The notes under the pieces are model-generated. The model had not been told where the DNA came from. It saw only the letters and a list, made by a program, of their open reading frames with translations, and made no database searches. From the NCBI GenBank assembly GCA_040954595.2, contig JBECUI020000024.1, positions 372,001 through 436,000 of the forward strand: a DNA stretch of 64,000 nt, in the 5' to 3' direction. Below are positions 1-24,321 of this stretch, piece by piece. The stretch's first letter is position 1. Every line of letters starts with the position of its first letter. This DNA comes from Balanoglossus misakiensis. Lineage: Eukaryota > Animalia > Hemichordata. The position numbers were made by a program, and so were the translations under genes.

Positions 1-151
1 AATTCGGGAAAGGTCTCTAAAATGTAATGGGTCATTCAATTTTGTAGAGTAAATTTCTAAAAATGTAGAAGATGGGAGGTTAAGATACCCAAAATGACTA
101 CGGCAAAAAAAAAGTCAGGCCCATAAGTTTCGGGGTGCGATTATAACGTAC

Positions 152-421
152 CTTTGCTCTATCATAGAGGCAAATGGTATTATCTCTTCCAGTGGAAAAG
201 TTGCGGAGCTGTACGTATTCTCCCTTCTGTAATCTGTTCAGCCACTTCGGATTTTCTTTCCAGAATTTAAGTTCCAGAACGTTGCCATCCTGCTGCATAC
301 AAGGCACGCTAAACAGTTTCCCGTTGGCGGAATTCCGGATCTCGACATCCTCCATGAGGCGCAATTTCAGTGCCACGCCTTGGCTGGTTGGGGATGAGGG
401 ACCGGGAGCCGGGGATGCCAT
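152..421 (-). CDS. First coding exon of tandem OB-fold protein gene, copy 1 (gene continues beyond left edge)
   Basis: Minus-strand acceptor tttcag| at 434, ATG at 421, 90 open codons MASPAPG...VALKLRLMEDVEIRNSANGKLFSVPCMQQDGNVLELKFWKENPKWLNRLQKGEYVQLRNFSTGRDNTICLYDRAK, then a phase-0 donor AAG|gtacgt. The beta-strand pattern (LKFW, L.KGEYVQLRNF) is OB-fold-like (inference). Confidence 0.7.
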
Positions 422-705
422 AACGCCGTTAAACCTGAAATATAGATTGAGAGTGGGTATTGTTTTACACAATTTTTGAACATTGAAGTAAAGTATTAGA
501 ATGATGGAGTCCGATAAAAAAGTGAGTTGGTGATTGCGGCATCCGACTTCGTTATTAAAAATGGAAAGATTTGCGATTTGAGATTCGGTTACCTTTGCAA
601 GTTTGAAAGGAAATATTTCATTGAAGCACAGTGGCAACTACTGGGTTATGGAGAATCTTTGAAATGTTGTTGAACGGAGACTTATTAGAATCAATGAAAA
701 CCTAC

Positions 706-855
706 CTTTAACGGCGTTACGGTTACTAAACGTGAGAGACCGCTTGTCTCGTTCATCCGATTCTGAGCTCCTAGCTCTTGTGGAGACATGCGGAGGTACA
801 GCGGGTTAACGGTTAGAAAGTGTTGATGAAAGAAATAAGTTTATAGGCCAATCAG
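706..855 (-). promoter_or_regulatory. Putative non-coding first exon and promoter of copy 1
   Basis: Donor taaag|gtagg at ~706 on the minus strand. The block is conserved in paralogs at 2390-2545 (+) and 18780-18880 (-). A CCAAT motif lies at ~848. Confidence 0.45.
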
Positions 856-1194
856 GAGTTAGATTCGAATGTCCGAAAATGAGAAACCGTAGGCGAACGC
901 AACAGACAGCAATTTAAATTTGCATAACTAGAGGTTTGGGTGGAAAGATTTCAGAATTTAACGCACATATACAGATATTTTGTAGTGGAAATTTGAGTAT
1001 ATTATAAATAGTACATGTAATAAGACTGTGAATTGATTTTATTTACTGACAATTAAATGCAGTTACCCTTTGAGTATGGGTGTTTATCGAGGGGGGGGGG
1101 GGTCCAAAAAAATGTTAGAAACTGTTGAAGATGAAACCGGAAAGATGTAGCAAATTCGTTAGTTTTCCCTTTTTTGGAAATTATGCTCGAAGCG

Positions 1195-1292
1195 TGTGAT
1201 TGGTCAATTAGTCAGAAGGGGATTGGTTGGAAATAGTCGAATATGATTGGGCAATAAGTTCGAAGCTGAAATCCCTCAGGCTGTATAAATAC
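1195..1292 (+). promoter_or_regulatory. Promoter-like cluster: three ATTGG (inverted CCAAT) boxes plus TATAAAT
   Basis: gattgg at ~1198, ~1220 and ~1245, then tataaat at 1284. Confidence 0.3.
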
Positions 1293-2852
1293 GGTGTTTG
1301 TGGCGTGTACTAATGGAGTATGGCTGGGGTGTGTTGTGTCGAGCAGTCTAGTATATCATTTGTGGGGCATTGAATATTTAGAACAAAGTTCTCTATGTCG
1401 GACTTCCTAACATATACTCGATCGTTGATAACAAAACGAGCAGATATTTTTGTGCAAATAGTGTGCGCAAAACAACAACTAAACATGAAGACAACAAGAT
1501 AGTACTGCGTGCGGTGCGACTCGGTTGTAAGCGTCAAGTCAAAAACTGCAAAGACATGCAACAGGTGTAAATATAGTCGACTGAAATGCTGAAAAACCAT
1601 GAATATCGATTGGCTCAAAGTGATGGGAATCGGCTCAACTTACCGGAGGGAATTGGTACATTATATAACGAGTAAACTAGAAAGAAAGAAATCCCAGCGT
1701 TAACACTGGAAATTGTTCATAAATTAATATTTATACATGTATGTGTATATTGCGTAACCTTCGAAAATTCGAATATCATTAGCACTTGGCCTAAAAAGTT
1801 GTGCATTGCGAGTGGGACACTGGGCAATTATTTTTATGGGCCGCCATCGCTATGCAGTTTAGATGTAGTATTTTACTCAACTTTTACCGGCAAGTGAGTG
1901 ATTTGCTTTCAGAAGGTAATGAGACGGAAATAAACTTATGCAATCAGAGTTAATTATTCGTGAGGATACAAACTTTTGTACTAGATTTATTGTAATTTTT
2001 CAGTGTATACTCCTGGCCTTCGCAGGACTTTCATTTTTTACCCGGTTTGTGTGTTTTCGGGTTACCCATGGGCATTCTCTACCTGTTTTAAAACTCTGAA
2101 CAAGAAGATGTCACGTGTATCATTTTATGTACGACGTACATCATTATAATAATGCTATAGTGAAGTTTTTAAAAAGGAAATATTTTTTTAGTGTTATTTT
2201 CTTCGTTTTTTATATGACTGAAATATGGTTGTGCTTGATGGAAAAACCGGATTCAACCTTAGCTTAATATATGCATTATCGTTCGCAACTGACGTCATAT
2301 AATGTAGCAATTTCCCTCCGGTTAAATTGAACCAATCGGCATTCCCGTTTTTCCACCATTTCACTCGAATATCTAACTCCAGGATCCTGATTGGCCTATG
2401 TAATTAATCATTCCTTTCATCAACACTTCCTAACCGTTAACCCGCTGTACCTCCGCATGTCTCCACAAGAGCTAGGAGCTCAGAATCGGTCGGACGCAGA
2501 CCAGCGGTCTGTCAGGTGTAGTAACCCTAACACCGTTAAAGGTAGGTTTTCATTTATTCTATTATAAGTCTCCGTTCATCAACATTTCAAAGATTCTCAA
2601 TAATGCAGTAGTTGCCACTGTACTTCAATGAAATATTTCCTTTCAAACTTGCAAATACTACTTGAACCGAATCGCAAACCTTTCCATTTTTAATAACGAA
2701 GTCGGATGCCGAAATTACCAACTCACTTTTTTTATCGGATTCCATCATTCTAATACTTTACTTCAATGTTCAAAAATTGTGTAAAACAATATCCACTTTC
2801 AATCTATATTTCAGGTTTAACGGCTATTTGTGCAACATTTGACAGTACTCAC

Positions 2853-2993
2853 ATCATGGACTTTTCCTACAACGCACACACTCTTCTTTTGTGGAGATAT
2901 CTCGACTTCTGATATCATTATTTGTGGCGGATGATAAAATTCTGTTACCAATTTTTCAGGTATATCCATCGCTTTTCGCCCGCAAGGTATGAT
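2853..2993 (-). CDS. Exon 3 of the OB-fold gene, lying inside the inverted block of copy 2
   Basis: ttttttccag| then 47 open codons IIPCGRKAMDIPEKLVTEFYHPPQIMISEVEISPQKKSVCVVGKVHD |gtgagt. Phase 0/0, so it joins in frame after YDRAK. Not present in the ORF track. Confidence 0.65.
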
Positions 2994-3422
2994 CTGGAAA
3001 AAAGTTTGGCGTAGTCTGTAAGTTGTGTGACTGAATCCGTAAAGGTGGCATTTGGAGGAAAAATTTTGAGCATTTTTATCAGTAATCTAGTTTGTTTAAA
3101 ATATTGGAACGCGATCAAAAATAAATGCGACTTGTAAACGAGTGCCGCGTTTGAATCGGTATTGACGATAAACATCGGTAATAGGCGATGAAATCAATGG
3201 ATTTTCAATGTACGTGATCGCATGGAGGCTGCCATATTGGATTACATCCGAAGACCTTCCGATTAGGCGTCGGTTGAATTCGGGAAAGGTGTTTAAAATG
3301 TAATGGGTCATTCAATTTTGTAGAGTAAATTTCTAAAAATGTAGAAGATGGGAGGTTAAGATACCCGAAATGACTACGGCAAAAAAAAGGCCCATAAGTT
3401 TCGGGGTGCGATTATAACATAC

Positions 3423-3680
3423 CTTTGCTCTATCATAGAGGCAAATGGTATTATATCTTCCAGTGGAAAAGTTGCGGAGCTGTATGTATTCTCTCTTCTG
3501 TTATCTGTTCAGCTATTTCGGATTTTCTTTCCAGAATTTAAGTTCCAGAACGTTGCCATCCTGCTGCATACAAGGCACGCTAAACAGTTTGCCGTTGGCT
3601 GAATTCCGGATCTAGACTGTATCCTCAATGAGGCACAATTTCACTGCCACGCCTTGGCTGCATGGTTGCAGATGATGGAG
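3423..3680 (-). pseudogene. Inverted degenerate copy of the first coding exon
   Basis: Near-identical to 152-400 but with in-frame TAG codons (GAG>TAG, TGG>TAG) and small insertions. Donor gtatgt. Confidence 0.75.
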
Positions 3681-4564
3681 CTAAGGTACGTAACAATCGC
3701 ACCCCGAAACGCCTGGGCCCTGTAGTCCTTGTGGGTATGTTAACCTCCCATCTCCTACATTTTTAGAAATTTAGTATACAAAATTGGATGACCAATTATG
3801 TTTTAGAGACCTTTCCCGAATCCACCTGAAGCCCAGTCGGAATGTCTTGGGATGTAACCTAAATTCAATATGGCCGCCTCCATGCGTTCACTTGCATTAT
3901 AAAAAAAAACGTTGATTTTATCTCCGAGTGGCGGTGTTTATCGTCAGTGCCAATTGAAACGCGGCACTCGCTTACAGGTCGCATTTTTATTTTTGAGCGC
4001 GTTCTAATATTCTAGAAAGAAAAAAATGATAGTTTCGAGTACAGATTACATGTATTTTAAAACAAGGTTTGGTCACAATGGTATCACTACTAAATGATTT
4101 ACAATCGATGTTTTTAATTGTCTTTGCACCACAGTATGAATCCTGTGATGGTAAATCGCATTCAACTTAGAAGGCGTGGAGTAAGTGCAACTGATGGTAA
4201 CTGGGATACCAAACTGAAACTTTTGGGAGAGAAAACCTTGCCATGCATGGACGTGGGTGGCACAGTTAAACTTGGGTTAAATACTACAGCGACAACTGAA
4301 GTCCCGGTGAGATATTATAAAATACTCTTACATCATAAAATTGAAATCCTACATGTCAATAATTTCATATTTTCACTAATGTTTAGCAAAAAACAACTGC
4401 TCTCAACAAACCTTACCCCTCCCCCTCTTGTATTGTCAGTGCTTTGTAATCTATCAGTAACAATCCATTTTTTTCTCTCAAGGTGTTAAAAGAACCTATA
4501 GCTACTGGTGATGACATGATACCGTCCATGGGTGTTGGAGGTAATACACTTTGTAAGTATTAAC

Positions 4565-5550
4565 CAGTCAGGACGTAAGTGGGGTAATTACGGCGGTGAG
4601 ATCAAAGAGATCTATTTGAATGTGAAAGTCGCTGAGTGGCAGTTACGGCCAGTTCGAAAAATTTTCAAACGGAGATTTTCGGTACTACAAGTGATCGTAG
4701 TGCACCCATTTTTCTAAGACGTGTATGAAACACCATAGTCAATGATAGGATGATTTTTCGTGAAGTTTTAACGACGCTTTCCCGAGAAAGACAGTTTCGG
4801 TATGTTGGTTTAAATTGTGGTCCTTGACTCTCGGCAAAGATTTCTTGTCTTGAAAAAAATTGGGTAGGTTAGGAAGATATTGAACTAAGTTACCGTGAAA
4901 TTATAATAGTGTGAGCCGCTCCGTTGTGGAGTAATGACGGTGTAAAAATTGCCTTCGCCATCGACGAGTACAGCCGTGTTTGCCATATGTGTATGCATTG
5001 AAGTAGGTCAAAGCATGTTAACCCATGACGTAATGGCTTCCTTTTCAACGCGTCGTTATCTCTCATTAGCATATTACATACGGAGTCTATACACTATTCA
5101 CGCTGACTGACTTCTCAGGACTGACCTATGGCACAGTAAATTGTGGTCCTTGACTCTCGGCATGGATATATTCATGTCAAAATTATGAATAGAGGAGTTT
5201 AATAATGTTTCTAAAACCTGAGGGGGTTAATTTTTGTGTGGGTATGGCTGATATTTTTTTTTTGTAACTTCAAGGTCACTTTGAATTTCGTGATCACAAT
5301 TTTGTCAGTGGAAGTAAAGAAATTCTTCTCGATAAAACTTCATGAAAAATCACATGTAGTACACTCATAGTACCAGTAATGTGCCTGGGGTGAAATAATT
5401 GTCAGAAATGGGTTGCTAGTTGCTTAACTTTCGTTGTGAAAAAAGTTGAAAAACTGTATGCAAATGAGCAATTCAAACGTTACTGGCCAGTTCAAGTGTT
5501 TGCATTGCATGATCCCCTGCTGTTTAATTATCCCACTTACGTCCTGACTG
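4565..5550. mobile_element. Non-autonomous DNA transposon (986 bp) with ~26-bp TIRs and 4-bp TSD TAAC
   Basis: CAGTCAGGACGTAAGTGGGGTAATTA ... TAATTATCCCACTTACGTCCTGACTG, with TAAC on both sides. The empty site is visible in the paralog at 17090-17104. Confidence 0.85.
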
Positions 5551-5949
5551 TAACTGCAGTAGTTGCTTACATCAGACTCCCACTATCTGCATGCAAGTTG
5601 TGGATGGATTTGCAGAGAGAGAGGCTAGTACACGGCACTCATGTGGACCTGCACTACCACATTTCTATTCAACATCAGGTCTCTGAGTAAAAAGATGGCC
5701 ATGTAAATTTTCTCTAAGTTTGTTAGAGAAATAAAGTACAACTTTAGTGTTTCACTAATTGAGTTTCAGTGTTCTTGTATTGTCTCGTTTGCCCCATGCC
5801 AACCTCAAAGTAAACGTCAAATTTGCCATTTTTGACTTATTTGTCCTTGTAGTGGGCCACATAGCATTTTAATGCAACTTATAAAAATCTGAAGAACCAA
5901 ATGCCTAATTTACCCACTCTGCACAGATTTATTTCAATGGTACAGACTT

Positions 5950-7523
5950 GATGATCAGTATAGCGCCCTCTGTGGTAGTATTTTGGGGGGGGGGGGGGTT
6001 AACCTAGCCTTTGTATGTTTATCCCTGTCCGGTTCCATTCCACTTGTATCTATGGTAACCTAATTATCAGCAGTAAAGGCCACAGCTTTGAAACAGTTTT
6101 AATATCAAGCACTCTGAATTACACGGCCATTCTCATTGGTGCATATAGTGTAGTCACGTTGTATTTTACTGCAACTGGTGAAAGTCTCCTAAAAAACCAA
6201 ATGTGTCTTTACCCACTGTGCACAGAGTATTTGAATGATACTCAGTTGATGGTCATATAGTATAGCGCCCTCTGTGGTAGTATTTTTATTATGGAGGTTG
6301 GGTTAAATCTTGTCTTCGCATATGTTTATCCCTGTCATGTTGCATTGGGCTTGTATCTATGGTAACCTAATTATCAGCAGTAAAGGCCACAACTATGAAA
6401 CAGTTTTAATATCAAGCACTCTCTGAATTACATGGCCATTCTCATTGGTGTATATAGTGTAGTCACGTTGTATTTTACTACAACTGATGAAAGTCTCCTA
6501 AAAAACCAAATGTGTCTTTACCCACTGTGCACAGAGTATTTGAATGATACTCAGTTGATGGTCATATAGTATAGCGCCCTCTGTGGTAGTATTTTGATTA
6601 TGGAGGTGGGGTTAAATCTTGTCTTTGCATATGTTTATCCCTGTCATGTTGCATTGGGCTTGTATCTATGGTAACCTAATTATCAGCAGTAAAGGCCACA
6701 ACTATGAAACAGTTTTAATATCAAGCGCTCTCTGAATTACATGGCCATTCTCATTGGTGTATATAGTGTAGTCACGTTGTATTTTATTACAACTGATGAA
6801 AGTCTCCTAAAAAACCAAATGTGTCTTTACCCACTGTGCACAGAGTATTTGAATGATACTCAGTTGATGGTCATATAGTATAGCGCCCTCTGTGGTAGTA
6901 TTTTGATTATGGAGGTGGGGTTTAATCTTGTCTTTGCATATGTTTATCCCTGTCATGTTGCATTGGGCTTGTATCTATGGTAACCTAATTATCAGCAGTA
7001 AAGGCCACAACTATGAAACAGTTTTAATATCAAGCACTCTCTGAATTACATGGCCATTCTCATTGGTGTATATAGTGTAGTCACGTTGTATTTTACTGCA
7101 ACTGATGAAAGTCTCCTAAAAAAACAAATAAGTCTTTACCCACTGTGCACAGAGTATTTGAATGATACTCAGTTGATGGTCATATAGTATAGCGCCCTCT
7201 GTGGTAGTATTTTGATTATGGAGGTGGGGTTTAATCTTGTCATTGCATATGTTTATCCCTGTCATGTTGCATTGGGCTTGTATCTATGGTAACCTAATTA
7301 TCAGCAGTAAAGGCCACAACTATGAAACAGTTTTAATATCAAGCACTCTCTGAATTACATGGCCATTCTCATTGGTGTATATAGTGTAGTCACGTTGTAT
7401 TTTACTACAACTGATGAAAGTCTCCTAAAAAAACAAATGTGTGTTTACCCACTGTGCACAGAGTATTTGAATGATACTCAGTTGATGGTCATATAGTATA
7501 GCACCCTCTGTGGTAGTATTTTG
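5950..7523. repeat. Tandem satellite, ~309-bp unit (left part, ~5 units)
   Basis: Marker gtatagcgccctctgtgg recurs at ~5958, 6260, 6569, 6878, 7187 and 7496. Confidence 0.95.
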
Positions 7524-9915
7524 GTCTCTCAGATACTGTTCTCATGTGGTTTATGTCATACCTTTCCAATCGTAGTCAGTGTGTACTTGTAAATTCCACC
7601 CAATCACCTTTCTATCGGCTCGACACTGGGGTACCACAGGGATCAGTTCTTGGTCCCATACTTTTCAATATGTACCCGTCTCCATTTGGTGAATTAGTTC
7701 AAAGTCATGGTTGTCTTTATAGTTTTTATGCAGATGACTCTTCACTTTATATGTCTTTTAGTAAAGACAACGCAGCAAGAACTGTTTCAAATCTTGAACT
7801 TTGTATATCCGATGTTAGGTTTTGGATGTCTGAAAACTTCTTGTGCTTATACGACGATAAGACTGAATTTGTTATTTTCTTTGGTATTTCAGGTGATCTG
7901 TCTGCTAGAGGGATTTCAGAAATTCGTGTTGGCGATTCTCTGATTCCTGTCCATTGTCAGGCTAAGAGCCTTGGTGTGCTCCTTGACTCTTTTCTGACAA
8001 TGAAGCCACATATTGGACAGATCTGCCGCTCTGCCACTTTTCATTTACGTCGCATTGCGCTTATCCGCAAATATTTATCTCATTCTGCTACAGAGCAATT
8101 AGTTCATGCATTCATTACTTCTCGAATTGATTCATGTACCACGGAATTCTTTTTACCAGCACCAAACGGCAAACTGGCAACATCGTATTTCTTTCATGCC
8201 AGCAACGCGTTATCTCTAAAATTGTAACAACGTCACAATGTACTAGACAAAGAGGCGTCCCCCCATCCCAATTGCGCAGTTGAAGTACGTGCGTGTTGAG
8301 AGAGAGACGTGAACAGAAAGGGGTAGGAGACTGACTTGAACACGGACGACGAGAGTTGTTTAGCGTGTCGAACGCTGCTCTACGAAGCTCGTAGTTACCT
8401 ACTGACCGGGACATTTGCGCTTGAACGGACTGGGTTCCTCCCGATTGCCGCACGCCGGCGGGTATGAAAGTGTAGGCTAAGACGTCGATCCACCGGCCGG
8501 CTGCACTGTTCCCAACATTACCAGCTCCACGCCACTTTGAGCTGCACCGCGGTCGGATATCCCACCCCGGCTGCCGGACAGCATATGAAGGTGTCTGAGG
8601 CCTTTTCTAGTCAAAACTTTGGGGTTTTCGGAATGGGAAATAGCGGAACAAGAACATGGATATATACTAAATCATGAACGCCAAACAAACACGTTGAAAA
8701 AGCCAGATCTGAAAAATTCATGTGGCGTCCGCCGCTGGGCGCATTGACGCGTCAACGTTTTTTTCAAACAACGTAACCTGTCACATTGCTGCCACAAACA
8801 ACAAGTTCGTGCGTAGGTCGAGAAAGTTCTCAAGCGGCCGGCTGATCGCGGCAAGGTTAGCGGCGGCCTCGCACGCCCGAATTTGCCACAAAACTATCAG
8901 TCCACACAGCAATGCCGTTCAAACTCTTCCGTCGTATTTATTTCAACACAAATTCAGAATACAACACGGCAGTTTGGTACGTCGTCTCTATCCTACACTG
9001 CTAATTCTCATCTCAATCTCTAAAAAAGTTCAACAGACGGGATACACTGCAACCCGCGGCACTAGGAACGGCAAAATTCACGTCTCTGCTTCACAGGAAT
9101 CTACCGACCTGAAGTGGGAGGAACCCAGTCCGTTCAAGTACAAATGTCCCGGTAAGAAGGTAACTACGAGCTTCCTAGAGCAGCGTTCGAGTCGACACGT
9201 CTCTCTCAACACGCACGTACTTCAACTGCGCAATAGGGATGGGGGGGCGCCTCTTTGTCTACTAAATTGTGACGTTGTTACAATTTTAGAGATAACGTGT
9301 CGGGCCCCCTCAAAGAAATCCGGTGGCCCCCTCAAAGAAAGCCGGTGTTGCTAGTTTGGCATTCGTTGCTAGTAAAAAGAATTTTGTAGTAATTCACTTT
9401 TATTTGGGCTCCCGAAGTATTCAATCAACCGTATCCAACGCGTTCAGAATATTGCTGCTAGAATTGTTACTCATTCAAAAATCACCTGTCACATCACTCC
9501 AATTTTGTATCAGTTGCACTGGCTACCTGTTACATAGCGTATTGTTTTTAAGATGTTAGTTCTCATTTTTAAATCTATAATAAACTTGGTCCAATCTATC
9601 TTTCTAGCATGACCAATCTATATGTTCCGTGTCGCAATTTAAGGTCAGCTGATCAGTTCAAACTCTGCCTTGTTCGATCACGCACCAAGAGTTATGGTGA
9701 TCGTGCTTTTACTGTTGCTGCTCCAATTCTTTGGAATAATCTTCCACTCACCATTCGCCAGGCACCAGACTTATCTGTTTTTAAATCAAATGTTAAAACT
9801 TTACTTTTTAAATCTGTTTTTTAGCCATTTGTTGTATTGTACTTTTGCTTTAAGCGTCATTGATCACATTTTTGTGGATACTGACACTATACAAATAAAT
9901 TATTATTATTATTAT
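7524..9915 (+). mobile_element. 5'-truncated L2/CR1-type LINE (RT C-terminal half) with (TAT)n tail
   Basis: GVPQGSVLGPILF...YADD RT motifs (ORF 7544-8227) and the downstream motif YGDRAFTVAAPILWNNLP. (TAT)n tail at ~9900. TSD tattttg at 7517-7523 and 9916-9922. Confidence 0.9.
8139..9389. mobile_element. Non-autonomous Tc1/mariner-like element (TA TSD) inserted in the LINE ORF
   Basis: Imperfect ~47-bp TIRs (CCACGGAATTCTTTTTACCAGC / CTACAAAATTCTTTTTACTAGC) plus subterminal inverted repeats 8205-8440 vs 9120-9300. TA on both sides. Removing it restores the LINE frame RIDSC-NSLLFGLP. Confidence 0.88.
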
Positions 9916-10700
9916 TATTTTGATTACAGAGGTGGGGTTTAATCTTGCCTTTGCATATGTTTATCCCTGTCCTGTTGCATTAGGCTTGTATCTATGGTAA
10001 CCTTATTATCAGCAGTAAGAGCCACAACTATGAAACAGTTTTAATATCAAGCACTATCTGAATTACACGGCCATTCTCATTGGTGTATATAGTGTAGTCA
10101 CGTTATATTTTACTGCAACTGATGAAAGTCTCCTAAAAAAACAAATGTGTCTTTACCCACTGTGCACAGAGTATTTGAATGATACTCAGTTGATGGTCAT
10201 ATAGTATAGCGCCCTCTGCGGTAGTATTTTGATTATGGAGGTGGGGTTTAATCTTGTCTTTGCATATGTTTATCCCTGTCCTGTTGCATTGGGCTTGTAT
10301 CTATGGTAACCTAATTATCAGCAGTAAAGGCCACAACTATGAAACAGTTTTAATATCAAGCACTCTCTGAATTACATGGCCATTCTCATTGGTGTATATA
10401 GTGTAGTCACGTTGTATTTTACTGCAACTGATGAAAGTCTCCTAAAAAAAACAAATGTGTATTTACCTACTGTGCACAGAGTATTTGAATGATACTCAGT
10501 TGATGGTCATATAGTATAGCACCCTCTGTGGTAGTATTTGGATGATAGGGGAAGGGGTAACCTACCTTTTCTATACATGTATATGGTTATCCCTCTTCTA
10601 TTGCATTCCGCTTGTATCTATGGAAACCTAATTATCAGCAGTGAATGCCAAATTGTAAAACAGCAACATATTTATTATCAAACACTGTATGGAATTGAAT
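9916..10700. repeat. ~309-bp satellite, right part (~2.5 units)
   Basis: The same unit resumes exactly after the LINE TSD, with markers at ~10204 and ~10515. Confidence 0.92.
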
Positions 10701-10807
10701 ATACACAATATGTTTTGTGTGTTTGCTGGCTACATACATGCATAAATACGTACATACATATATTACACTCATACTCAAGCACACAGCTAATGGACTCTTT
10801 TTTTCAT

Positions 10808-10881
10808 CATCCCCACCAGGAATCGAACCTGGATCTCTTATCACAAAGTGACAAGTGTGTTAACCATTACACCATGAGGAT
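10808..10881 (-). tRNA. tRNA-like gene or pseudogene (Gln-like body, aberrant anticodon arm)
   Basis: Acceptor stem ATCCTCA/TGGGGAT, D stem GTGT/ACAC with an A-box, T arm CCAGG-TTCGATT-CCTGG. The anticodon arm is 2 nt too long and there is no oligo-T terminator. Confidence 0.5.
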
Positions 10882-13330
10882 TTTTTATCTCCACTAACTG
10901 CCAACACACTGTCCAATTGCACATTCACTCACTGACATATTCAACTAACACACCAGTTTCTTTATTTCAAAAAGTACACAGTAAAACATCACAAATGAGA
11001 AGACAGGGGTATCAGGAATCACACAAATCATACTCAATGTTTTACTGAAGCCATTGCTGTAAGATTGCTGTAAGTAATGGCACTATTCAATGGTGTTAAC
11101 ACCACATAGCACAATGATGTACTGCACACATTCAAGTCACATACCTTTTTGAAGTATTAATAAACACTGATTCTATGAACTGTTAAAATTATTTTTTCTT
11201 ACATCATCCCTGAATACCAAATTTCAAACAAATTAGGCTAGTGCTTTCACATGTTAACACACAATGCATGGCACTGGACAATCATCCTATCCGATCTGAA
11301 ACCTCAGTGTCACTTACCACAAAACTAAACACGTTATCTACAAATGATTTACGAAACTAATTCGTACACGACACAATACACATTTGAGTGTGTTGATATC
11401 TTAGTTTGTACATGATACTTTGCACTGATGTACACCAACACTCACCTTGAGAACTCTTTGGTAGCCAAAACTGTCAAGAAAATAAACAAAACTTTTAAAT
11501 TAAATCATTAAGTATAATTGTGTATTTAAACAAGTACATCAAGATATACACTTGCCTGCATAACACACACCTCTCAATAGCCATAATGTATCAATGTCGA
11601 GATGACATCACTCCAAGTACAAGATAGCGAATGATGATTTTTTTACAATAACCCCACTACTTAAACAGGACAACAAATTACAATGAATTCACTATCAACC
11701 TTGTGATATTCAGAAAATCAATTCTTGGTCACATAAATTGTCCTGTCCACAAAATGGTTTCATGGCATCAAAATATGTTAACAAGTCAACTCTACTTTTC
11801 ATGCTCCAACCAGATTTCATTGTCTATGTTTTTAACATGCCTGTCACGACTAGAAAGCATACACACTAAACAGAGTGGTCACCAGCATAATTTGGCCAAT
11901 TCTATGCTTGTCCTCACATTCTTACGAACAATTCAAATGTCAAATTATCTAGCAATGTTTCTGTTATGTACTCACACAGATTGTTCCATATTTGAAGCAA
12001 ATAATTATCAAAAACAAATTGATTACCCTGATATAAATTCCAATGAAAACCTTAAGGCTTTTGGTCATGTAAACATACAATATTAACAGAAAAAATAATG
12101 GAAAATACAATCCATTTTTACTACTGTTTATTTTTTGACAAATACATATAAGAGACATGGAAACTATTGAAGTACACATCCCAAAATAATATCCTACCAC
12201 TGCTTGTACGTTTCATACACACGATACAAGACCGATCGCCCGAATTCAGCAGATTCGCTTGCCTAAAACCGTTTCTAAATAATCATATGTACCTGTATAC
12301 ACTCCAAAAATAAGCTTAATTTCAACTTGTATGGAATGAAATAGAAACTCCGATGTACCCAGCCTCTGATGTTTCTATTCCTTCAAGCAAACTTCACCAT
12401 CTTAACATATATACAATTTGCCAAAACATGCATACAAACGAAACCCTTTCAGTATATAACGACAACCGCCATATTGGATGTCGCTCGACACGAAAATAAA
12501 ATACGCCTGACAAAACTGCCATCGCCTCATACACAATTAAAATCACACTACCATTGGATAAAACACAACTACATAACCAATACCATCAACTCTTACACGT
12601 TCAAACCACCGATTCTGTCATTTATACTCATTTAAAAATAACCACGAGAATATACACATATCCCACTAACCTATATTCAGCTGCTGAACAACAAGAGCAC
12701 TTGATTCGTTTTCGGATGTGACTACGTGCAACAACATACGCATCACCATCACATTCGCGTTGGGATTCAAGACAGTTTCAATATCTCAAGAAGCAATACA
12801 ACGAGAAGACCTTCTCGGGATTTTATGCACATCCTGTTGGATATCGCTGCCAAATGTCCACAGATGATAAAACATGATACCAGAATGTTGTATTGGGGAC
12901 AACCATCAAATGTTCCCGTGCCAGCACCCTCTATATTCTAGAAACCCTGGTATATCTCAAGAAACATTACCATTTTTAATTATTTTTAAAAGCAAAAGTA
13001 AGTTGTCATTTTATTTGTACAATTATTTCTCTATATTAAACAAGTATACATAAACACTAAAACATGTTTTGCCATGTTAACATAAATTTATGACCATTTT
13101 AAAATACTATATAGCTTATATTTATTAAAGTACAAATTCGGATGTTTTTCATTTTTAACCATTTCCACAATCAAAATGAAAAAAAAATCGCATTAATAGT
13201 AGATATGGTTATATTGGATATCATTATGTAAAACTGAAGAGTCACTATGGCATGGAAACTACTGAGATATGTGGTAGAAAACCAAAATGCCCAACAAATA
13301 TACACAGTGTGTGTTGTGTGTTAGATAGGT

Positions 13331-13357
13331 ACATACATGCATGCATGCATGCATACA

Positions 13358-13391
<34 letters not shown>

Positions 13392-13398
13392 CATACAT

Positions 13399-13469
<71 letters not shown>

Positions 13470-13510
13470 TACATACATACATACATACATACATACATAC
13501 ATACATACAT
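13331..13510. repeat. Compound microsatellite (CATA)n(CA)n(CATA)n
   Basis: Directly visible. Its left flank is an inverted copy of 15830-15870. Confidence 0.98.
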
Positions 13511-14765
13511 GCGCCCTGTATTGACCAAATACCGTCGTGCAAGCTCATGTACAAGCTATTTCTTTATGCCTGAACAAAAATTGACCAAATTCTACTGTTT
13601 ATTATGATTCATTCTTCGAAACAATTCATCTTCTTGCCATATTTTATTTGTTCATATAACACATTTTGAAGAAAAGTTGTACAAAGACTACAATATACTA
13701 ATGGGCTATATTCTCAAAACAGATATATTACCACAAATACTACTAGGGATTGTGTAGTGGTTTCTTTCTCACTATAAGACATATGATATCTGATATCAAC
13801 CATACAAACAATATCAATCTTTTTACACACATACATACATTCATACTTACACAAAAAGCATAAAACACCAATTTATTTTATATAGCCTTATATTAATTTA
13901 TTTCAATTGTGAAAATAGACACACATACAAAAAAGAACAGAAAAACAATCACAGTATCTGGTTTATGAAATAAAAAAGACCAAACAAGCAATTGCTTCCG
14001 AAATAACATATTCCACATTCTGTCACAAATTGAGCAAATTCCAGTAAAATCAACCCCAAGGACCTACACACTAAATTTCAAAGTAATTGTACAAAGAATT
14101 TAACTAAACACAACTAAAATTGATCAAAAATTACACATTTCACCACAATTTACATAAACTCTACCAACTTCACCCTAGGAACCTGCATACTAAATTTCAA
14201 AGTAATTGGCCCCGTGGTTTCAGTAAAGAAAAGTGACAGACAGTGACACCACTCACCCAATAAGACAATCACCCAATCTAATAAGCTCAACATAACTGAC
14301 AACACAGCTAAACAGTTCACCGACAATATAAATACAATTGTGTACATTTCACAAATGACAATATTAGCCTTTTAGTCACCTCTGACTCTAATGTAAAGTA
14401 CATTATGGTAACTGTTCATTGAAATGTTTCTGGGAAATGTTTACTAAGGCTATTTAATATCTTCTATTTTTTTTTTATAACACATGGTTTCTCTTGCAAT
14501 TCCTCTTCCAGTAAACAGGATAAACTTTCTACACCATTACACTTATATGCTACTGCCAAATGGAAGTAATCTAATCCTGTAGTAGCTATAAAGCAGCATT
14601 GTCAGGGCCCAAGCAACATGATGAAAAAAGGTGAAAGCACACGTTATAGTTACTCAAACTTTTACCAGAAAATTTTGATAGATCATATTGGTTCACGTCC
14701 AAGCAAATCGGACTTCTAACCATATTGGTTAGCTTACAATTTGATAAGTATATAAATTAAAGGGA

Positions 14766-15060
14766 CCCTTTTCCATTAATTATGTTTGATGCAAGACACC
14801 ATTTATGTTAATGTACATGTGGATATATAGTGAATCAACATTCAACAACACACACTGCTTGTAGTCACGAGAGTGAAAAATCTTGCCAAAATGAATAATT
14901 GGTCTTTACCATTTATTCATTTTGGGCGAGTTTTTACTGTCATATCCTACAAACGGGATGGAAGCTGTGTGTGGTCGAACGTTGATTCACTATATATCCA
15001 CATTAACAGTCTCTTGTATCACACATAATTATTAAAAAAGGGCAGCAAAGAGACTTTCTG
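14766..15060. mobile_element. MITE-like foldback element
   Basis: Arms cttttccattaattatgtttgat...gatatatagtgaatcaac and gttgattcactatatatc...cataattattaaaaaaggg. Half copies at 24615-24770 and 26942-27062. Confidence 0.7.
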
Positions 15061-15275
15061 CCTTTAATAAGCTAATAAAAGTGTTAGACTGCATTGGCTG
15101 CTCTATAATACCATATAGCAATGCAGTAACTCCTGTGGATGCCAATTTCTGACTCTCTGTTATTTCTCACATGCATTTGTGAATTTTTATTGAAATAAAA
15201 AAACTGGTGTGTTGAATATGTCAGTGAGTGAATGTGCAATTGGACAGTGTGTTGGCAGTTAGTGGAGATAAAACA

Positions 15276-15349
15276 ATCCTCATGGTGTAATGGTTAACAC
15301 ACTTGTCACTTTGTGATAAGGGATCCTGGTTCGATTCCTGGTGAGGATG
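15276..15349 (+). tRNA. tRNA-like gene or pseudogene, inverted paralog of 10808-10881
   Basis: Perfect acceptor stem ATCCTCA/TGAGGAT, A and B boxes, extended anticodon hairpin CTTGTCAC-TTT-GTGATAAG, one T-stem mismatch. Confidence 0.5.
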
Positions 15350-15383
15350 ATAAAAAAAGGAGTCCATTTGCTGTGTGTTTTCC

Positions 15384-15832
15384 ATGTATGTATGCATGTA
15401 TGTATGCATGCATGTATGTATGCATGTATGTATGCATGCATGCATGTATGCATGCATGTATGTATGTATGTATGTATGTATGTATGTATGTATGTATGTA
15501 TGTATGTATGTATGTATGTATGTATGTATGTATGTATGTATGTATGCATGCATGCATGTATGTATGCATGTATGTATGCATGTATGTATGCATGTATGTA
15601 TGCATGTATGTATGCATGTATGCATGCATGCATGTATGCATGTATGCATGCATGTATGCATGTATGCATGTATGTATGTATGCATGTATGCATGCATGTA
15701 TGCATGTATGTATGTATGTATGCATGTATGTATGCATGTATGCATGTATGTATGTATGTATGCATGTATGTATGTATGTATGTATGTATGTATGTATGTA
15801 TGTATGTATGTATGTATGTATGTATGTATGTA
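15384..15832. repeat. (TATG/CATG)n microsatellite
   Basis: Directly visible, ~450 bp. Confidence 0.98.
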
Positions 15833-16874
15833 CCTATCTAACACACAACACACACTGTGTATATTTAATTCCACAATGCTTGATACTAAAACTGTCCACA
15901 AAAAAACATTTGTTTATAACCCCTAAGTGCTTGTCTTCCACACTTACCTTCTCTTGGCATTTTTTTCCACAGATGATGCAATACTGCTCGTCTCTTCATC
16001 CTGGTCTCTTGCGCTCCCCTTTTTACTCTCCCTGAATGCTGACAACACGTACCGTCTCATTGTTCAGTGGATATGCCTTGCTGTCATCTGCATCTGCTCC
16101 CTCAGTACCCCCTTCTCCCTGGCACAATCATCCAAATACTATCGCAGAGGGCGCTATACTATATGACGATCAACACAATATCATTCAGATAATCTTTGCA
16201 CAGTGGGTAAATTAAGCATTTGGTTTTTCACGAGACTTTCATCAGTTGTACTAAAATGAAATGTGTCTACACTATACAAATGACAATGGCCTTCTAATTC
16301 AGAGACGTTGGGAAGGACTAGTGAGCACATACAGCAAATCAGAAGGCCCAAAATGGCAAGGTTGCATGATTACTAATGGGAAACAAAGAATACCCAGGGT
16401 ATATTTAATTCCACAGAGTGCTTGATACTAAAATTATTGCTGTTTTACAATTGTGGCATTTACTGCTGATAATAAGGTTACCATAGATACAATTGGAATG
16501 AAACCGGACAGGGATAAACATATAAAGGCTAGGTTAACCCCCCACCCCCTACCACAGAGGGCGCTATACCGATCATCAAGTCAGTACCATTGAAATAAAT
16601 CTGTGCAGAGTGGGTAAATTAGGCATTTGGTTCTTCAGATTTTCATAAGTTGCACTAAAATGCTATGTGGCCCACTACAAGGATAAATAAGTCAAAAATG
16701 GCAAATTTGATATTTACTTTGAGGTTGACATGGGGCAAAGGAGACAATACAAGAACACTGAAACTCAATTAGTGAAACACTAAAGTTGTACATGTACTTT
16801 ATTTCTCTAACAAACTTAGAGAAAATTTACATGGCCATCTTTTTACTCAGAGAACTGATGTTGAAAAGAAAACA

Positions 16875-18880
16875 ATGTTACATCATAAAATTGAAATCCT
16901 ACATGTCACTAATTTCTGATTTTCACAAATGTTCATAAAAAAAACCTGTTCTCTGCAAACCTTACCCCCCCCCCTCCTATTGTCGGTGCTTCTAATGTAA
17001 CTCTCAATTTTTCCCTAAGGTGTTAAAAGAACCAAATGGTGATGATATGGTAGAAGGGATATTTGAGGGAATAGACATAGATGAGTAAATATTAACTGCA
17101 GTACTTGCTTCCACCAATTTCCAATCATTTTGTGTACATGTTCACGTCTCTGTGTCTTACCAATCACATTCTGTCCTTTTTATTTTTTTCTAGAAGTGGC
17201 ATCTTCTGTGTCAGACAGCAAATACTTACAGTGTCCCACCTTATGCCAGACCTTGGGTACAGAGGAGGCCATATTAGAAAACCTGCCAATGCATGTACAC
17301 TACTCTATCAATCAAGAAATGCAACAGTCACAAAGATTGAGTAAGTTAACTAAACCAAAGCAATCTCCACCCTGCAACTTCCCCAGCACTTACTATCTGC
17401 ATGCAAGTTGTGAACTTTTAATTTAGTATTCATTACAGAAACATTTCAGTCCTACAATTCACATGCATCTTATTTTCGTCAACACCAACTTATACAAAAT
17501 ATGATTTAACCATCTTGTTCTCATTTCTCTCCAATGTACAGAAAGCAGTAGCCTGGATGGATTTACAGAGAGAGAGGCTAGTACACGGCACTCATGTGGA
17601 CATGCACTACCACATATCATATCTCAAGGGGACTTCAGTTGTAGCTGTAGTATTTAACCCAAGTTTAACTGTGACACCCACGTCCATACATGGCAAGGTT
17701 TTCTCTCCCAAAAGTTTCAGTTTGGCATCCCAGTTACCATCAGTTGCGCTTTCTCCATGCCTTCTAAGTTGAATGCGATTTACCATCACCGGATTCATAC
17801 TGTGGTGCAAAGACAATTAAAAACATCGATTGTAAGTCATTTAGTAGTGATACCATTGTTACCAAACCTCGTTTAAAAATACATGTAATCTGTACTCGAA
17901 ACTATCATTTTTTCTTTCTTTCTAGAATATGACTTGTAAGCGAGTGCCGCGTTTAAATTGATACTGAGAATAAACACCGCTAATCGACGATAAAATCAAC
18001 GTATTTTCAAATGCAAGTGAACGCATGGAGGCGGCCATATTGAATTTAGGTTACATCCCAAGACATTCCGACTGGGCTTCAGGTGGATTCGGGAAAGGTC
18101 TCTAAAACATAATCGGTCATCCAGTTTTGTATACTAAATTTCTAAAAATGTAGGACATGGGAGGTTAACATACCCACAATGACTACACACAAAAAAGGGC
18201 CCAGGCGTTTCGGGGTGCGATTGTTACGTACCTTAGCTCCATCATCTGCAACCAGCCAAGGCCTGGCTGTGAAATTGCGCGTCATGGAGGATGTCGAGAT
18301 CCGGAATTCCGCCAACGGGAAACTGTTTAGCGTGCCTTGTATGCAGCACGATGGCAACGTTCTGGAACTTAAATTCTGGAAAGAAAATCCGAAGTGGCTG
18401 AACAGATTACAGAAGGGAGAATACGTACAGCTCCGCAACTTTTCCACTGGAAGAGATAATACCATTTGCCTCTATGATAGAGCAAAGGCCGGGGATGCCA
18501 TTACGCCGTTAAACCTGAAATATAGATTGAGAGTGGATATTGTTTTACACAATTTTTGAACATTGAAGTAAAGTATTAGAATGATGGAGTCCGATAGAAA
18601 AAGTGAGTTGGTAATTTCGGCATCCGACTTCGTTATTAAAATGGAAAGATTTGCGATTTGAGATTCGGTTACCATTTGAAAGGAAATATTTCATTCAAGT
18701 ACAGTGGCAACTACTGGATTATGGAGAATATTTGAAATGTTGATGAACGGAGACCTATTAGAATCAATGAAAACCTAACTTTATTGGTGTTACGGTTACT
18801 ACACCTGACAGACCGCTGGTCTGCGTCCGACCGATTTTGAGCGCCTAGCTCTTGTGGAGACATGCGGAGGTACAGCGGGT
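16875..18880 (-). pseudogene. OB-fold gene copy 3, rearranged pseudogene
   Basis: Exon 1, intron 1 and ATG (MASPA) are on the minus strand at 18880-18488. The body of the coding exon (18232-18487) is flipped to +. Exon 4 (~17628-17799) is on minus with a TT donor. Exons 5-6 (from 17020, and 17194-17340) are flipped to +. Confidence 0.7.
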
Positions 18881-18884
18881 TTAT

Positions 18885-19745
18885 TGGTTTTTCGTAAAAC
18901 CATAGTTAAACTCCAAAAATCTTCTTCTCCAGAACGAGCGATGACTGAGTCGCAAGATTCGGGGAGTATGGTCACTACACTGATGTCTATCAAGTTTGCA
19001 AAGAGCATTGTGATTGGTCGAAGATTATGGTGGCCATATTGGATTTTGTAAAAAAACAGAGAAAAATTGAAATTCCTTTTTCTAGTCCAAAAATTGATAG
19101 CATACAAATTAATTTTATGGATATCAATCGTCATGTGACTAAAATATATAACAATTTTTTGGCGATTTTTCACATGACCTTTGACCTAATTATCATGCGT
19201 TATTATTTCTGCATATCTAATTCCAGGCTAACCTATAGGGCTAGAGGTTTGGTTTTTGATGAATGTGGATTAGTGTGTGATCAAAATATTTTGCTACTTT
19301 TCATGACCCCTTTGACCTCTGCTGACCTCATTAATTATGCACATACCTAATTACAGGCGAACCAATAGAGCTAGAGTTTTGGTTTTTGTTGGACATGGAC
19401 CAGTATGGGTAAAAAAAAATGCCCAAATGTTGGGTGACCTCAGGTGACCTTTGACCTACTTCACCCTATTTCAGCAGCAAAAATACACACATCCTTGTTA
19501 TGTCATGAGATAATACATCCGATAGAAAATTCTGTTTCTTCTCATTCATACTGTGCATATATAATTCAAGATCAGCGCTTGGGCCCGACAATGCTGCTCG
19601 CAGCTTTAATTCTTCTTCTTCTTCTTCTTCCGAGAAATTCGGCCAGTTAGATCTGGAAAACCGCTGCACCTAGGGGGCTGAAACTTGGTAGGGTGATAGG
19701 GGCCAATGAGTAGACGTGCAGTGGCTCGTGAATATTTAATTAGTT
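18885..19745. mobile_element. Old interspersed repeat (HINE/Helentron-like family) between copy 3 and the SVEP1-like gene
   Basis: 19300-19500 is reverse-complementary to the ~240-bp units at 46610-47990. A hairpin gctgctcgcagc is followed by ttt at ~19594. Confidence 0.5.
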
Positions 19746-19754
19746 TTTCAGCAG

Positions 19755-20038
19755 CTGTATGGTAATTCTTGGTCAAAGCTATGACGAAAATGGACTCCTT
19801 GACAACTATTTTAGCTTCCATGGTGATGTTACACAGATGAATGTATACGATTATGTATTGACTCCTGTTGAAATCCAGAGTCTGGCTTTGAACTGTTCAC
19901 AAAGTCCACTTGGCAATCATGTCATGTGGGTTGAAATGGATCAAGAGTTATTGGGTAGTGTGGTCAAAATCCAGCCATCAGCTTGTGGAAGTACCAGGTG
20001 CCCAATTGGTTACTCTGGTTCACCATGCACACCTGTTG
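19755..20038 (+). CDS. Exon: C-terminal part of pentraxin/LamG domain plus Cys-rich linker
   Basis: VILGQ...FHGDVTQMNVYDYVLT..EI...C. Acceptor cag| and donor |gtaaat. Confidence 0.85.
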
Positions 20039-20379
20039 GTAAATAGCCTTATTCATTACTATCAAACAATTTTATGCATAATCTGACGAGGAGAAATTGG
20101 GTCATATTCACAGAGTTGATTAATCCTAAATCCTTACTTTAACACAGCTCTCCTTGTAATGTTGTGTCTGTCCAGGGAAAACTGTGTGAAATTTTGAGTA
20201 GTTTTTCCTGTGTACATTCACCAGCCCCTAGCTGCTGTGTGTTGTACTCCAATCACACAGCCTGCAATCTCCCTACTTTAGGAAGTATAGGGAATCATCA
20301 TCTGCCCATGCCTGTATCGCTCACTCTTTTTGTTTCTACCGTACATGTATTTAACACTGAATGTAATGATACTATTCAC

Positions 20380-20476
20380 AACCACTATCACCATCATCAT
20401 CATCATAATCATCATCACCACCACCACCACCACCATCATCATCATCATCGTCATCATCATCACCATCATCATCATC
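20380..20476. repeat. (CAT/CAC)n microsatellite in intron
   Basis: Directly visible. Confidence 0.95.
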
Positions 20477-20775
20477 AGTTTCTGCTGTTCCAAGAACTAG
20501 GCTTATCATGAGTGTAATTGATCATATCAGTTATTATGCCTATGGATACCATCTCATGACTCCTGTCCTATCTTGTAGTGTTTCTTGACAGTGATCTAGT
20601 CTATTCACATGTATCAGAAAACAAGCACTTAACAATATCTGGATTTCTCATGAATATGTGACAGATATTAACATCTAGTAGTGCATTTACCTAAATGTAC
20701 CAGTGTATGCATATGGGGTGTGGACCAGTTGTTTAATTTACAAACATTTGTTATTCTTTCATTTTTTTTCTTCAG

Positions 20776-20916
20776 ATAAACACGCTCCTGAAGTCATTTA
20801 CTGTCCCAATACGACCCGTATAATTAGTCCTAATAGCTTGACAACAGGAGTATGGCAGGAGCCTATATTTACAGATGATGTCGCCATTGCCAATGTGACA
20901 CAAACCTACACAATGG
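20776..20916 (+). CDS. Exon: HYR domain N-half
   Basis: DKHAPEVIYCP...WQEPIFTDD. Canonical splice sites, phase 1/1. Confidence 0.85.
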
Positions 20917-21620
20917 GTAAGTTTCCTATAAAATATCATTTCTGATTATAGATAATATATAACATTCACACTAACTAAGTTTTTTTTATCGGGGTGGGGT
21001 GGGGAGTTGATCTAAACAGAAACCAACAAGCTGAGACAACTTTCCTAAGATTATTGTCAGTATGAAGCATACTGGTACAGTTTATTCTTGTGGCCGTTAC
21101 TCATATATGGCTAGCACATCCTATGTGCGACAGATGATCTTGCTTCCAAGTATTAAAGCCTCAATTGCTGATACTATTACCATATGTTTATAGGCCCTTT
21201 CCTCGATCCCAGGGCAGTACAATGAAGTTAAAACTCGAAAGCATTTGTGTTTGCACGTAATTGTTTATTGGAAACAAAAGATTTGACCAACTGTTGAGCA
21301 AGGCCTTTAATCAGTAAAGTACTTAATATTCTCCACTACTACTGGGGATACCCATACCACAAATGTTGTGTTCTCTTACAATGGGCAGTTGAATAAACGT
21401 GTGCGGCACCATATCTGTTTAGTATACATATCTTGTTCATGTTTATATGTACAGTCACAATCAGGAGTTGATAATATGCCTGTGTATACCCACCAGATAG
21501 CTCACTTAAATGGACCATTCTAAGTTTGAATAGAAAATCATGACAAACATTCAAGAAACGGAAGCTATTTTGGCTTTAGCACCCATGCCTGTAATGATGT
21601 GCATAATTTTGTTCTTACAG

Positions 21621-21716
21621 GTGACACCTTTTCCTGGGGAACCTACCAGATCAGCTATGTTGCTTCAGATACAGCTGGCAACAATGCACAGTGCAACTTT
21701 TTACTCTATGTACTGC
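21621..21716 (+). CDS. Exon: HYR domain C-half
   Basis: GDTFSWGTYQISYVASDTAGNNAQCNFLLYVL. Canonical splice sites. Confidence 0.85.
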
Positions 21717-21809
21717 GTGAATTTTTTTATCATTCCTACATAAACTTTACAAATTAATTAATATCTTGACAAATTGTCATCTCTACCCCTTGTTATGTCT
21801 TGTCACATA

Positions 21810-21998
21810 CTGTAAAACGGGACATTTTCGTGACAGAAAATATTTTGCAATATATCAAAAGAGGCAACTGTGACACGAGAATTAAATTTCCGCATTCTAG
21901 TATTTTACTAACTACTCTGTTATCTCTGAAAAACATTTATGCGACTTTATCTTCTTCTTCTTTTTTGCCGAAGTTTGGGAAAATTTGCCGTTTTACAG
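21810..21998. mobile_element. Tc1/mariner-type MITE (TA TSD)
   Basis: TA-CTGTAAAACGG ... CCGTTTTACAG-TA. Confidence 0.75.
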
Positions 21999-22710
21999 TA
22001 ATATGATTGCATCATTATCACTTTTGTCCCTATGTAACTATCAAAAATTATAACAACATCATTCAGAACATACAAGGACACTCAAACCCGTCTAAAACAA
22101 ACCCTGTCTAATCGGGAAACCTCTCTTCAACCAACAGCTTTTCCTAGTCCCTTTTACATAGAAACATGTTAATGTGTTGGTGTTCTGTTTAAAAGATTTG
22201 ACTGTGTAATAAATATGGGTGTCACACATACACCATTAAGACAGTTCTGAAGCATCTCAGAATTGATACTGTCTTAAAAAAACATGTGTGGACGGTGTAA
22301 GTGGTCCTGAAACGTCTCAGATTTTAGACGGCTCTGCCAGCCAGACCTGAGCCGGTGTAAGGATTAACACCTCTCCGCAACCCATTGTCTATGGGGCCGA
22401 GCCTCAGCGCCCATACATAAACTTTGTGTGTGTGGACACAACATGACTCAAAGGATTAATGCTCTGTGGTTAGCACTGGCAAATAGTGTCTCAAATTTTA
22501 CCCTGTGTGAACCTGGTAAAAGAGGCATTGTGCCCTAGTGGCTAGGGTTGTGGGTTCGTTACCTAGACCTGGACATTTGGGTAGTATTTGCCTGTTGGAT
22601 GATATATGAGACACAGACATTTGGGTAGTATTTGCCTGTTGGATGATAGATGAAATAAAATTAAAAATATATATATAGACAAATAAACTGTGTTCTCCTT
22701 TCTTTTACAT

Positions 22711-22911
22711 CATTTGATTGTGAAAAGCCAGCACCACCAGTTAAAGGTATTTCCATCTGTAATGAGTTTGAGTCGGGTGTGTTCTGTCAGGTGGATTGTT
22801 TACCAGGGTACAAGTTTGCAAGCCTGCCAGCACCTTACTATCTCTGCCATAGTGAAGGATCTTTTAATCCTGAGAATCCAGACGAGGAATTCACCTTCCC
22901 TGGATGTTCAG
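22711..22911 (+). CDS. Exon: sushi/CCP-like domain (acceptor mutated AG>AT)
   Basis: FDCEKPAPPVKGISIC...CQVDCLPGYKF...YLC...FPGCS |gtgag. Confidence 0.8.
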
Positions 22912-23314
22912 GTGAGAAAAAAATGATTTGGTATCAGTAAAGAAATATAATCAGGTTGCACATGCACATTCAGAAAATTCTCCAAAGAGAGAGAGTTGTG
23001 AGAGGGGGTATTCCAGCATTGAGACAATTTTCTTTTAGTTATAAATGAAAACAGAAATATGAGTAATGCAAATTCTTGCTTTACAGTATGTCAAGGTTGT
23101 GATTACAGGCAGATAATCTGTTAACATCATATCTGCTTACCCCAATATAAAGCTCCAGTACATTTGAGCTATTTTCTTAATATTTTGTTCTGGGTAAGCA
23201 GCTGTAACTTTCCTGATTGGCTAAGCGGTTTAGCAGTCTAAGTCAATACATCGTTCGCTAGATTGAAAATTGCATCTTTAACAAAATTTGTTTGTTTGTA
23301 TTGTTCTACTGCAG

Positions 23315-24284: not shown

Positions 24285-24321
24285 GTGAGTGCCTATACTC
24301 CTCAGTTGTTATGTACTTTAA

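Follow-up and report, generated by a model that had tools for sequence, protein, structure and literature searches.

The DNA analysed here is a 64,000-nucleotide window of the hemichordate Balanoglossus misakiensis (contig JBECUI020000024.1, positions 372,001 to 436,000; coordinates below are those of the window), which carries three partial, rearranged copies of a spliced animal gene of five coding exons. An initial annotation of the region had joined four pieces into one protein with a pair of folds of the oligonucleotide/oligosaccharide-binding (OB) type and an architecture like that of the HIN domain of the mammalian DNA sensors AIM2 and IFI16, and had proposed that the family undergoes birth and death. 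The present study describes the copies and their lesions, and weighs a relationship to HIN against an origin from replication protein A (RPA) or from mobile elements.

Three partial copies and their lesions

Self-comparison of the window placed the copies in the order A (−), B (+), and C (−); A and B are head-to-head neighbours, and B lies tail-to-tail with C (Table 1). The exons are bounded by canonical AG acceptors and GT donors in mostly compatible phases, and two paralog lineages are represented, the first introns of which are 83% alike (263/316). Three of the pieces in the initial annotation (152-421 (−), 2853-2993 (−), and 4136-4306 (+)) translate as it had described and have AG/GT splice sites, but the fourth, 17020-17340, read there as one exon in need of a frameshift correction, consists of two exons, 17020-17084 and 17194-17344, which join in phase and run to a stop codon at 17342-17344. 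Since the pieces come from copies A, B, and C and from two paralog lineages, the joined product is a chimera of three partial copies and not a single protein. The +1 frame of the exon 4/5 piece of copy C looks the more protein-like one, so that compensating frameshifts may have occurred; the +1 frame of exon 5 had no NCBIfam match.

Copy A leaves the window at its left end beyond exon 1, is clean over the visible portion, and has a start codon in good context. The first exon of all three copies contains an upstream ATG (706-790 (−), 2457-2541 (+)), the frame of which in copy A would end at the first codons of exon 1 and could constitute a regulatory upstream open reading frame. Exon 1 of B, like that of C, runs opposite to the copy’s own 5' region and to exon 3, and copy C has the same exon-1-end stub and intron ahead of exon 3 as copy B.

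Table 1. Positions of the gene copies and their parts in the window
Feature	Positions	Strand	Description
Copy A 5' region	706-857	−	Inverted CCAAT box 852-848, promoter role inferred from sequence; probable non-coding first exon to 706; donor GT 705-704
Copy A exon 1	152-434	−	Acceptor ends at 435; 90 codons open from the ATG (421) to the phase-0 donor (151); likely OB fold 1
Copy B 5' region	2385-2824	+	CCAAT box, first exon, intron, and first 10 nt of exon 1; 90% to 425-857; head-to-head with copy A
Copy B exon 1	3423-3667	−	Inverted relative to own 5' region; pseudogenised, 3 stops in 68 codons plus indels
Intron 1, type 1 (copy B)	2994-3422	−	GT..AG, 429 nt, phase 0; joins exon 1 to exon 2
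Exon 2, sole copy in window	2853-2993	−	End of OB1, HIN-like linker, OB2 strand 1; phase-0 donor after V-H-D
Second paralog’s exon-1-end stub and intron	3668-4134	+	18-nt stub 3668-3685; donor 3686; intron fused to exon-3 acceptor; exon 2 of that paralog missing
Copy B exon 3	4135-4306	+	Strands 2-5 of likely OB2; out of phase near start; likely internal deletion; phase-0 donor at 4307
Copy B exon 4	4483-4552	+	Decayed; copy B without exon 5
Copy C 5' region	18488-18881	−	Includes ATG and 4 codons
Copy C exon 1	18251-18487	+	Open yet inverted; 204/205 identical to copy A across 3' part
Copy C exon 3	17628-17799	−	Lesions as in copy B; donor changed to TT
Copy C exon 4	17020-17084	+	Acidic; phase-2 donor; within inverted block 16869-17618
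Copy C exon 5 to stop codon	17194-17344	+	Small C-terminal region, fold unassigned

Copies B and C are pseudogenes: they contain stops, their exon 3 is out of phase and likely shortened, and exons are inverted or missing. Exon 2 closes in phase 0, but in that phase the reading of exon 3 from the acceptor at 4135 meets a stop after 11 codons, and a frameshift therefore lies near the start of exon 3 in both copies. Exon 3 also likely lacks part of strands 4-5 in the window, as a low-depth paralog contig (runs X3 and X4) matches the window up to 4142 and then again from 4276, and loose contig ends at 4277 (one contig in X2, three in X3) read in frame as 10 or more residues absent from the window, directly before LNTT. 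Loose contig ends at 4312 share the donor and continue into a different intron, and one more contig spans diverged versions of the end of exon 1, the intron, and exon 2. These extra in-frame residues and diverged segments, found in the contigs of two samples, are hints of a diverged, more complete paralog, which likely exists. The earlier description of the protein as reconstructable was an overstatement, because each of the two copies with the second OB exon in the window has it in damaged form.

The layout of copies B and C is real, since sample S1 (X1 = X2) has contigs that run across the two junctions of the inverted block of copy B (2768-3225, 3561-3898), which excludes an assembly artefact there, and a contig of sample S2 (run X3) shows the copy C junction (4318/5662, on opposite strands). 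Having the right-hand junction and the exon 3 lesions in common, B and C probably descend from one copy that was already broken. The near-identity of exon 1 between copies A and C, against 5' flanks that are 93.7% identical, suggests recent gene conversion. Over 68 codons, exon 1 of A and B differs by 3 synonymous changes, 6 that are non-synonymous, and 3 that give stops, and exon 3 of B and C by 5 synonymous and 4 non-synonymous changes in 57 codons, counts from which the ratio of non-synonymous to synonymous rates is uninformative given the pseudogenes and gene conversion. The proposed birth and death is thus borne out locally, by three copies in two paralog lineages with pseudogenes and likely gene conversion. 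The debris is likely the product of inverted duplications and deletions at the locus, together with gene conversion between the head-to-head paralogs, and the working gene would be copy A or the diverged paralog seen in the contigs. A programmed, invertase-like switch, considered because inverted introns flank exon 1, was rejected, as flipping the segment restores neither exon 2 nor the frame.

Contig word depth over positions 1-5800 was approximately 1,800-3,600 or more in X3 and X4, versus approximately 50-180 for the diverged-paralog contigs, although contig depth is no copy number. The long X1 and X2 contigs of the same region had a depth of approximately 3-5, and amplification bias, copy number, or library type could lie behind the contrast with X3 and X4. 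Both samples differ from the window at identical sites (positions 670, 715, 1060, 1683, 1701, 2075, 2105, and others); the window thus represents a third haplotype or contains errors there.

OB-fold predictions and comparison with HIN

Weak but concordant searches suggest that exon 1 encodes an RPA-type OB fold. Its best PDB sequence match was 2k50, an RPA-related OB domain (E = 0.014; two matches at E ≤ 10), its sole NCBIfam match was replication factor A (NF009030, E = 0.017), and in the ESM Atlas it fell to RPA, SSB, and POT1-type OB clusters at 0.90-0.94; no single one of the three pointers is significant and they are not entirely independent of one another, yet they agree. For exon 1, Pfam returned only VTC (0.012) and DUF5088 (0.14), and per-exon searches, of Pfam and NCBIfam among others, matched nothing relevant for exons 2 and 3, whose residue pattern nevertheless makes a second OB fold likely. 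A first AlphaFold model of exon 1 matched Ig-like sandwiches; a second had the OB order of elements with weak matches, 8 of the 50 listed being titled SSB, RPA, OB, or telomere-binding. The tandem OB folds of the initial annotation are accordingly backed by weak database matches in the first fold and by residue pattern in the second.

Searches for homologs were negative. None of 63 candidates was accepted for exon 1 against longer proteins at E ≤ 0.01, nor the single candidate for exon 2, nor any of 33 in the exon 3 alignment, and phmmer found no real homolog of exon 1 at E ≤ 0.001 among 1.84 billion representatives; its single match, a Mycoplasma Rib-repeat protein with a score summed over repeats, was rejected. 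No relative was present among viral, metagenome, or prokaryote genome contigs or phage records, and PHROGs returned only unknown families at E of at least 0.29.

The HIN domain consists of two OB folds connected by a two-helix linker, as described in PMC7969034, and the predicted protein resembles that of the therian PYHIN family (AIM2, IFI16, MNDA, PYHIN1, p202, p204; Pfam HIN) in its predicted tandem OB folds of similar spacing, in two of its exon boundaries, and in local birth and death with pseudogenes. The first HIN exon ends on a whole codon directly after OB2 strand 1 (PMC3458909, Fig S5), with L-H-K, V-H-K, or V-Q-K in IFI16 HIN-A, IFI16 HIN-B, and AIM2, and exon 2 likewise ends in phase 0 after a V-H-x motif, V-H-D. 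The 20 residues from this exon end to the Ile after the linker equal the distance in HIN without a gap. Exon 3 ends in phase 0, 10 residues past the last-strand Leu, and a by-eye alignment gives the identical count in the HIN rows of PMC3458909 (Fig S3), which are drawn from two HIN exons and end 10 residues past the strand-5 Leu, their phase not being given. In a post hoc model of 3 introns in 200 codons, at least 2 coincidences with the 3 boundaries of HIN arose in 1.2e-4 to 1.4e-3 of trials.

The linker follows the HIN pattern M-[DE]-I-P-x-x-L-[IV]-x6-P-x-I in register and begins 13 residues after the strand-5 Tyr, versus 14 in the IFI16 HIN-B row by eye. It agrees with HIN at 7 of 13 scored positions, ungapped, a score that 1,750 of 100,000 shuffles of exon 2 equalled or bettered, and when the linker was combined with the strand-1 motif, the latter pinned at the exon end, 16 of 200,000 shuffles did as well or better, with the strand-1 motif alone at chance; both tests are post hoc. 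The HIN-like layout of the initial annotation therefore gains two exon boundaries in register that had escaped its notice, together with the linker pattern, but obtains no profile match.

From these features we put at about 0.5 the probability that this is a tandem-OB family derived from RPA and related to HIN, and as such a non-mammalian cousin of the AIM2/IFI16 HIN domain, seen here mostly as duplication debris. Several observations weigh against it. Single exons of 47-90 aa, scanned exon by exon, gave no HIN profile match, and the signature motifs MFHAT and TPKI are absent from the exons. The strand-1 Gly sits at the RPA rather than the HIN position, and the models of exon 1, the only exon modelled, were built from one or two sequences and are of low confidence (predicted local distance difference test 50-55). 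The domain spans three exons with an extra phase-0 intron near the end of OB1, versus exactly two in HIN. Exon 2 has 6 Lys + Arg and 6 Asp + Glu, and the linker sites that are Lys/Arg-rich in Fig S3 are, by sequence, T and E. No pyrin domain was found in the window copies: the ATG of copy A (421) precedes OB strand 1 by approximately 15 codons, the exon upstream offers no coding sequence in frame with it, frame 98-637 had no Pfam match, and an upstream death-fold exon was looked for and not found. Further differences from HIN-200 are the RPA-like strand motifs, a linker end two residues longer, an extra C-terminal region, and the non-mammalian host with its other neighbourhood.

The context speaks against a therian host: the neighbour is an SVEP1-like gene rather than the SPTA1-CADM3 interval, and the observed/expected CpG ratio is 0.52-0.95, which is compatible with a fish but argues against a mammal, in which this ratio is approximately 0.2. 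Membership in PYHIN was accordingly rejected, there being no pyrin domain in the window copies, three exons, a non-basic linker, and no SPTA1-CADM3 interval.

Alternative origins and the surroundings of the locus

The main rival, which we consider less probable than the HIN relationship yet well worth weighing, is a lineage-restricted, fast-evolving offshoot of DNA-binding domains A and B of RPA70 (DBD-A/B), or of another cellular OB pair that binds single-stranded DNA, not specially connected with HIN; chance or a generic OB ancestor would then account for the matches in linker and introns, and the protein would bind single-stranded DNA in repair, meiosis, or telomere work. All database pointers are of RPA/SSB/POT1 type, with RPA70 DBD-A/DBD-B and archaeal replication factor A (2k50, NF009030) the best sequence matches for exon 1, and the strand-1 pattern V-x-V-V-G-x-V, the long and basic strand 1-2 loop of OB2, and the Trp after strand 3 (in the 2k50 alignment) are RPA-like; these, with the missing HIN motifs, speak for the offshoot and against the HIN relationship. 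Two exon boundaries and the linker register nonetheless agree with HIN, whereas the RPA70 A-B linker is short and non-helical, and the nearest RPA1 intron in this region lies approximately 8 codons upstream in a different phase. The predicted protein further differs from RPA70 in having no N-terminal OB (approximately 15 residues separate its start codon from strand 1), a longer linker, and multiple, decaying copies, and exons 4-5 showed no zinc-ribbon OB. RPA1 orthology itself was rejected, the gene being too diverged, with approximately 270 residues from five short exons versus the four OB domains of the strongly conserved RPA1, and no RPA Pfam match. Among telomere OB pairs (POT1, Teb1, TEBP), an Atlas POT1 cluster was reached at 0.92 (3 of 30 hits carry that set) and Teb1 OB-A and TEBP occurred among weak fold matches, but there was no Pfam POT1 match and nothing links the gene to telomeres.

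Carriage of an OB-fold accessory gene by a DNA transposon or other mobile element, such that the copies are decayed non-autonomous elements, is improbable. Plant Helitrons are reported to use an RPA70-like protein (PMC4344730), and their intron-bearing RPA-like OB genes in multiple rearranged copies resemble the chimeric, inverted, and deleted copies found here among tandem repeats, inserts like miniature inverted-repeat transposable elements, and a short interspersed nuclear element (SINE); contig depth over the region, which is no copy number, is also far above that of the paralog contigs in one sample. However, no transposase or RepHel was present among 175 window frames scanned against Pfam (10, then 96 of 104 and 66 of 68 frames of at least 58 aa, and 3 more, those left out having already been scanned, overlapping OB exons, or lying in repeats; frames within 1-8000 were partly scanned), the sole mobile-element match being a reverse-transcriptase (RVT_1) fragment. 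No element termini, of Helitrons or otherwise, were seen around the copies, viral and phage collections gave no match, the host is an animal, and the B/C duplication, like a segmental duplication, includes the SINE together with several kb of flanking DNA. No evidence was found for the transposon origin raised in the initial annotation. That the family is dead in this species, or that exon 1 is no OB fold and the pattern was over-read from repeats, is very improbable: B and C are broken, the fold models poor, and no homolog was found, but five exons have canonical, mostly phase-compatible splice sites, copy A is open with a good start context, a paralog has an in-frame extra stretch, and the OB matches concur.

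To the right of the copies lies an SVEP1-like gene (19815-28262 (+)) with pentraxin, HYR, Sushi, four Ephrin_rec_like matches, EGF, and a likely transmembrane segment, and with an in-frame TAG at approximately 25335 in an Ephrin_rec exon. Its start falls within the pentraxin, and positions 1-19900 showed no pentraxin exon further upstream; the SVEP1-like gene could therefore be 5'-truncated or have the OB copies inside a long intron. A second pentraxin piece at 61935-62351 (−), together with a 70% match to sequence close to the HYR exon, suggests a paralog on the opposite strand. Intron 4 of copy B contains a 986-bp element (4565-5550); its terminal inverted repeats are 26 nt long (96%), TAAC is duplicated, and copy C has the empty site. 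A long interspersed nuclear element fragment at 7524-9912 (RVT_1, E = 3e-12) breaks a 309-bp tandem array and is itself broken by an element with inverted arms (8205-8442 / 9116-9300). Two tRNA-Lys(TTT)-like sequences (10808-10881 (−) and 15276-15349 (+)), the second followed by a long (ATGT)n tail, are likely a tRNA-derived SINE within the B/C inverted duplication. An 82-bp satellite occupies 34148-45247 (133 copies, 93% matches), with 160- and 239-bp arrays at 45867-48011.

Predicted function and significance

The intact protein would have approximately 270 residues, with two RPA-type OB folds, a predicted helical linker, a small C-terminal region, and no pyrin. It would bind DNA without sequence specificity through the OB loops, as OB2 has a strongly basic loop between strands 1 and 2 (R-I-Q-L-R-R-R); exon 1 has 13 Lys + Arg versus 9 Asp + Glu. 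The OB1-OB2 linker helices of AIM2, IFI16 HINb, and p204 face double-stranded DNA, whereas p202 HINa uses the OB loops instead (PMC7969034). The linker helix is not the surface proposed here, because the linker is neutral to acidic. Having no pyrin domain, the protein would coat or sequester DNA on its own and would not nucleate an inflammasome. Analogy and gene turnover are the sole pointers to an immune role, and no evidence was found for the immune function that had been proposed initially.

PMC3458909 describes HIN as without trace outside mammals and with little sequence likeness to other DNA-binding domains, and PMC13253634 places the origin of PYHIN genes in therians, in the SPTA1-CADM3 interval. 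Tandem-OB proteins with a comparable layout, as yet unannotated, may also occur in fish and marine invertebrates. A term search of the main text of PMC11377751 returned no mention of HIN, IFI16, AIM2, or PYHIN, and no published description of a non-mammalian HIN-like family was found in a literature search beyond whose reach most subscription journals lay. If the link to HIN fails, the locus is a modest find, the pseudogene debris of an unannotated OB-fold family. Tentatively, and at somewhat less than even odds, we suggest that the gene belongs to the ancestral metazoan family that gave rise to HIN, an RPA-derived tandem-OB gene with the HIN linker and both downstream exon boundaries that is still turning over in a non-mammal. 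A non-mammalian tandem-OB gene with RPA-like strands and the HIN linker and exon boundaries would be the missing intermediate; if this is true, the PYHIN sensors arose in therians when a pyrin exon became joined to one of the family’s genes, and the age of HIN exceeds what is believed by hundreds of millions of years.

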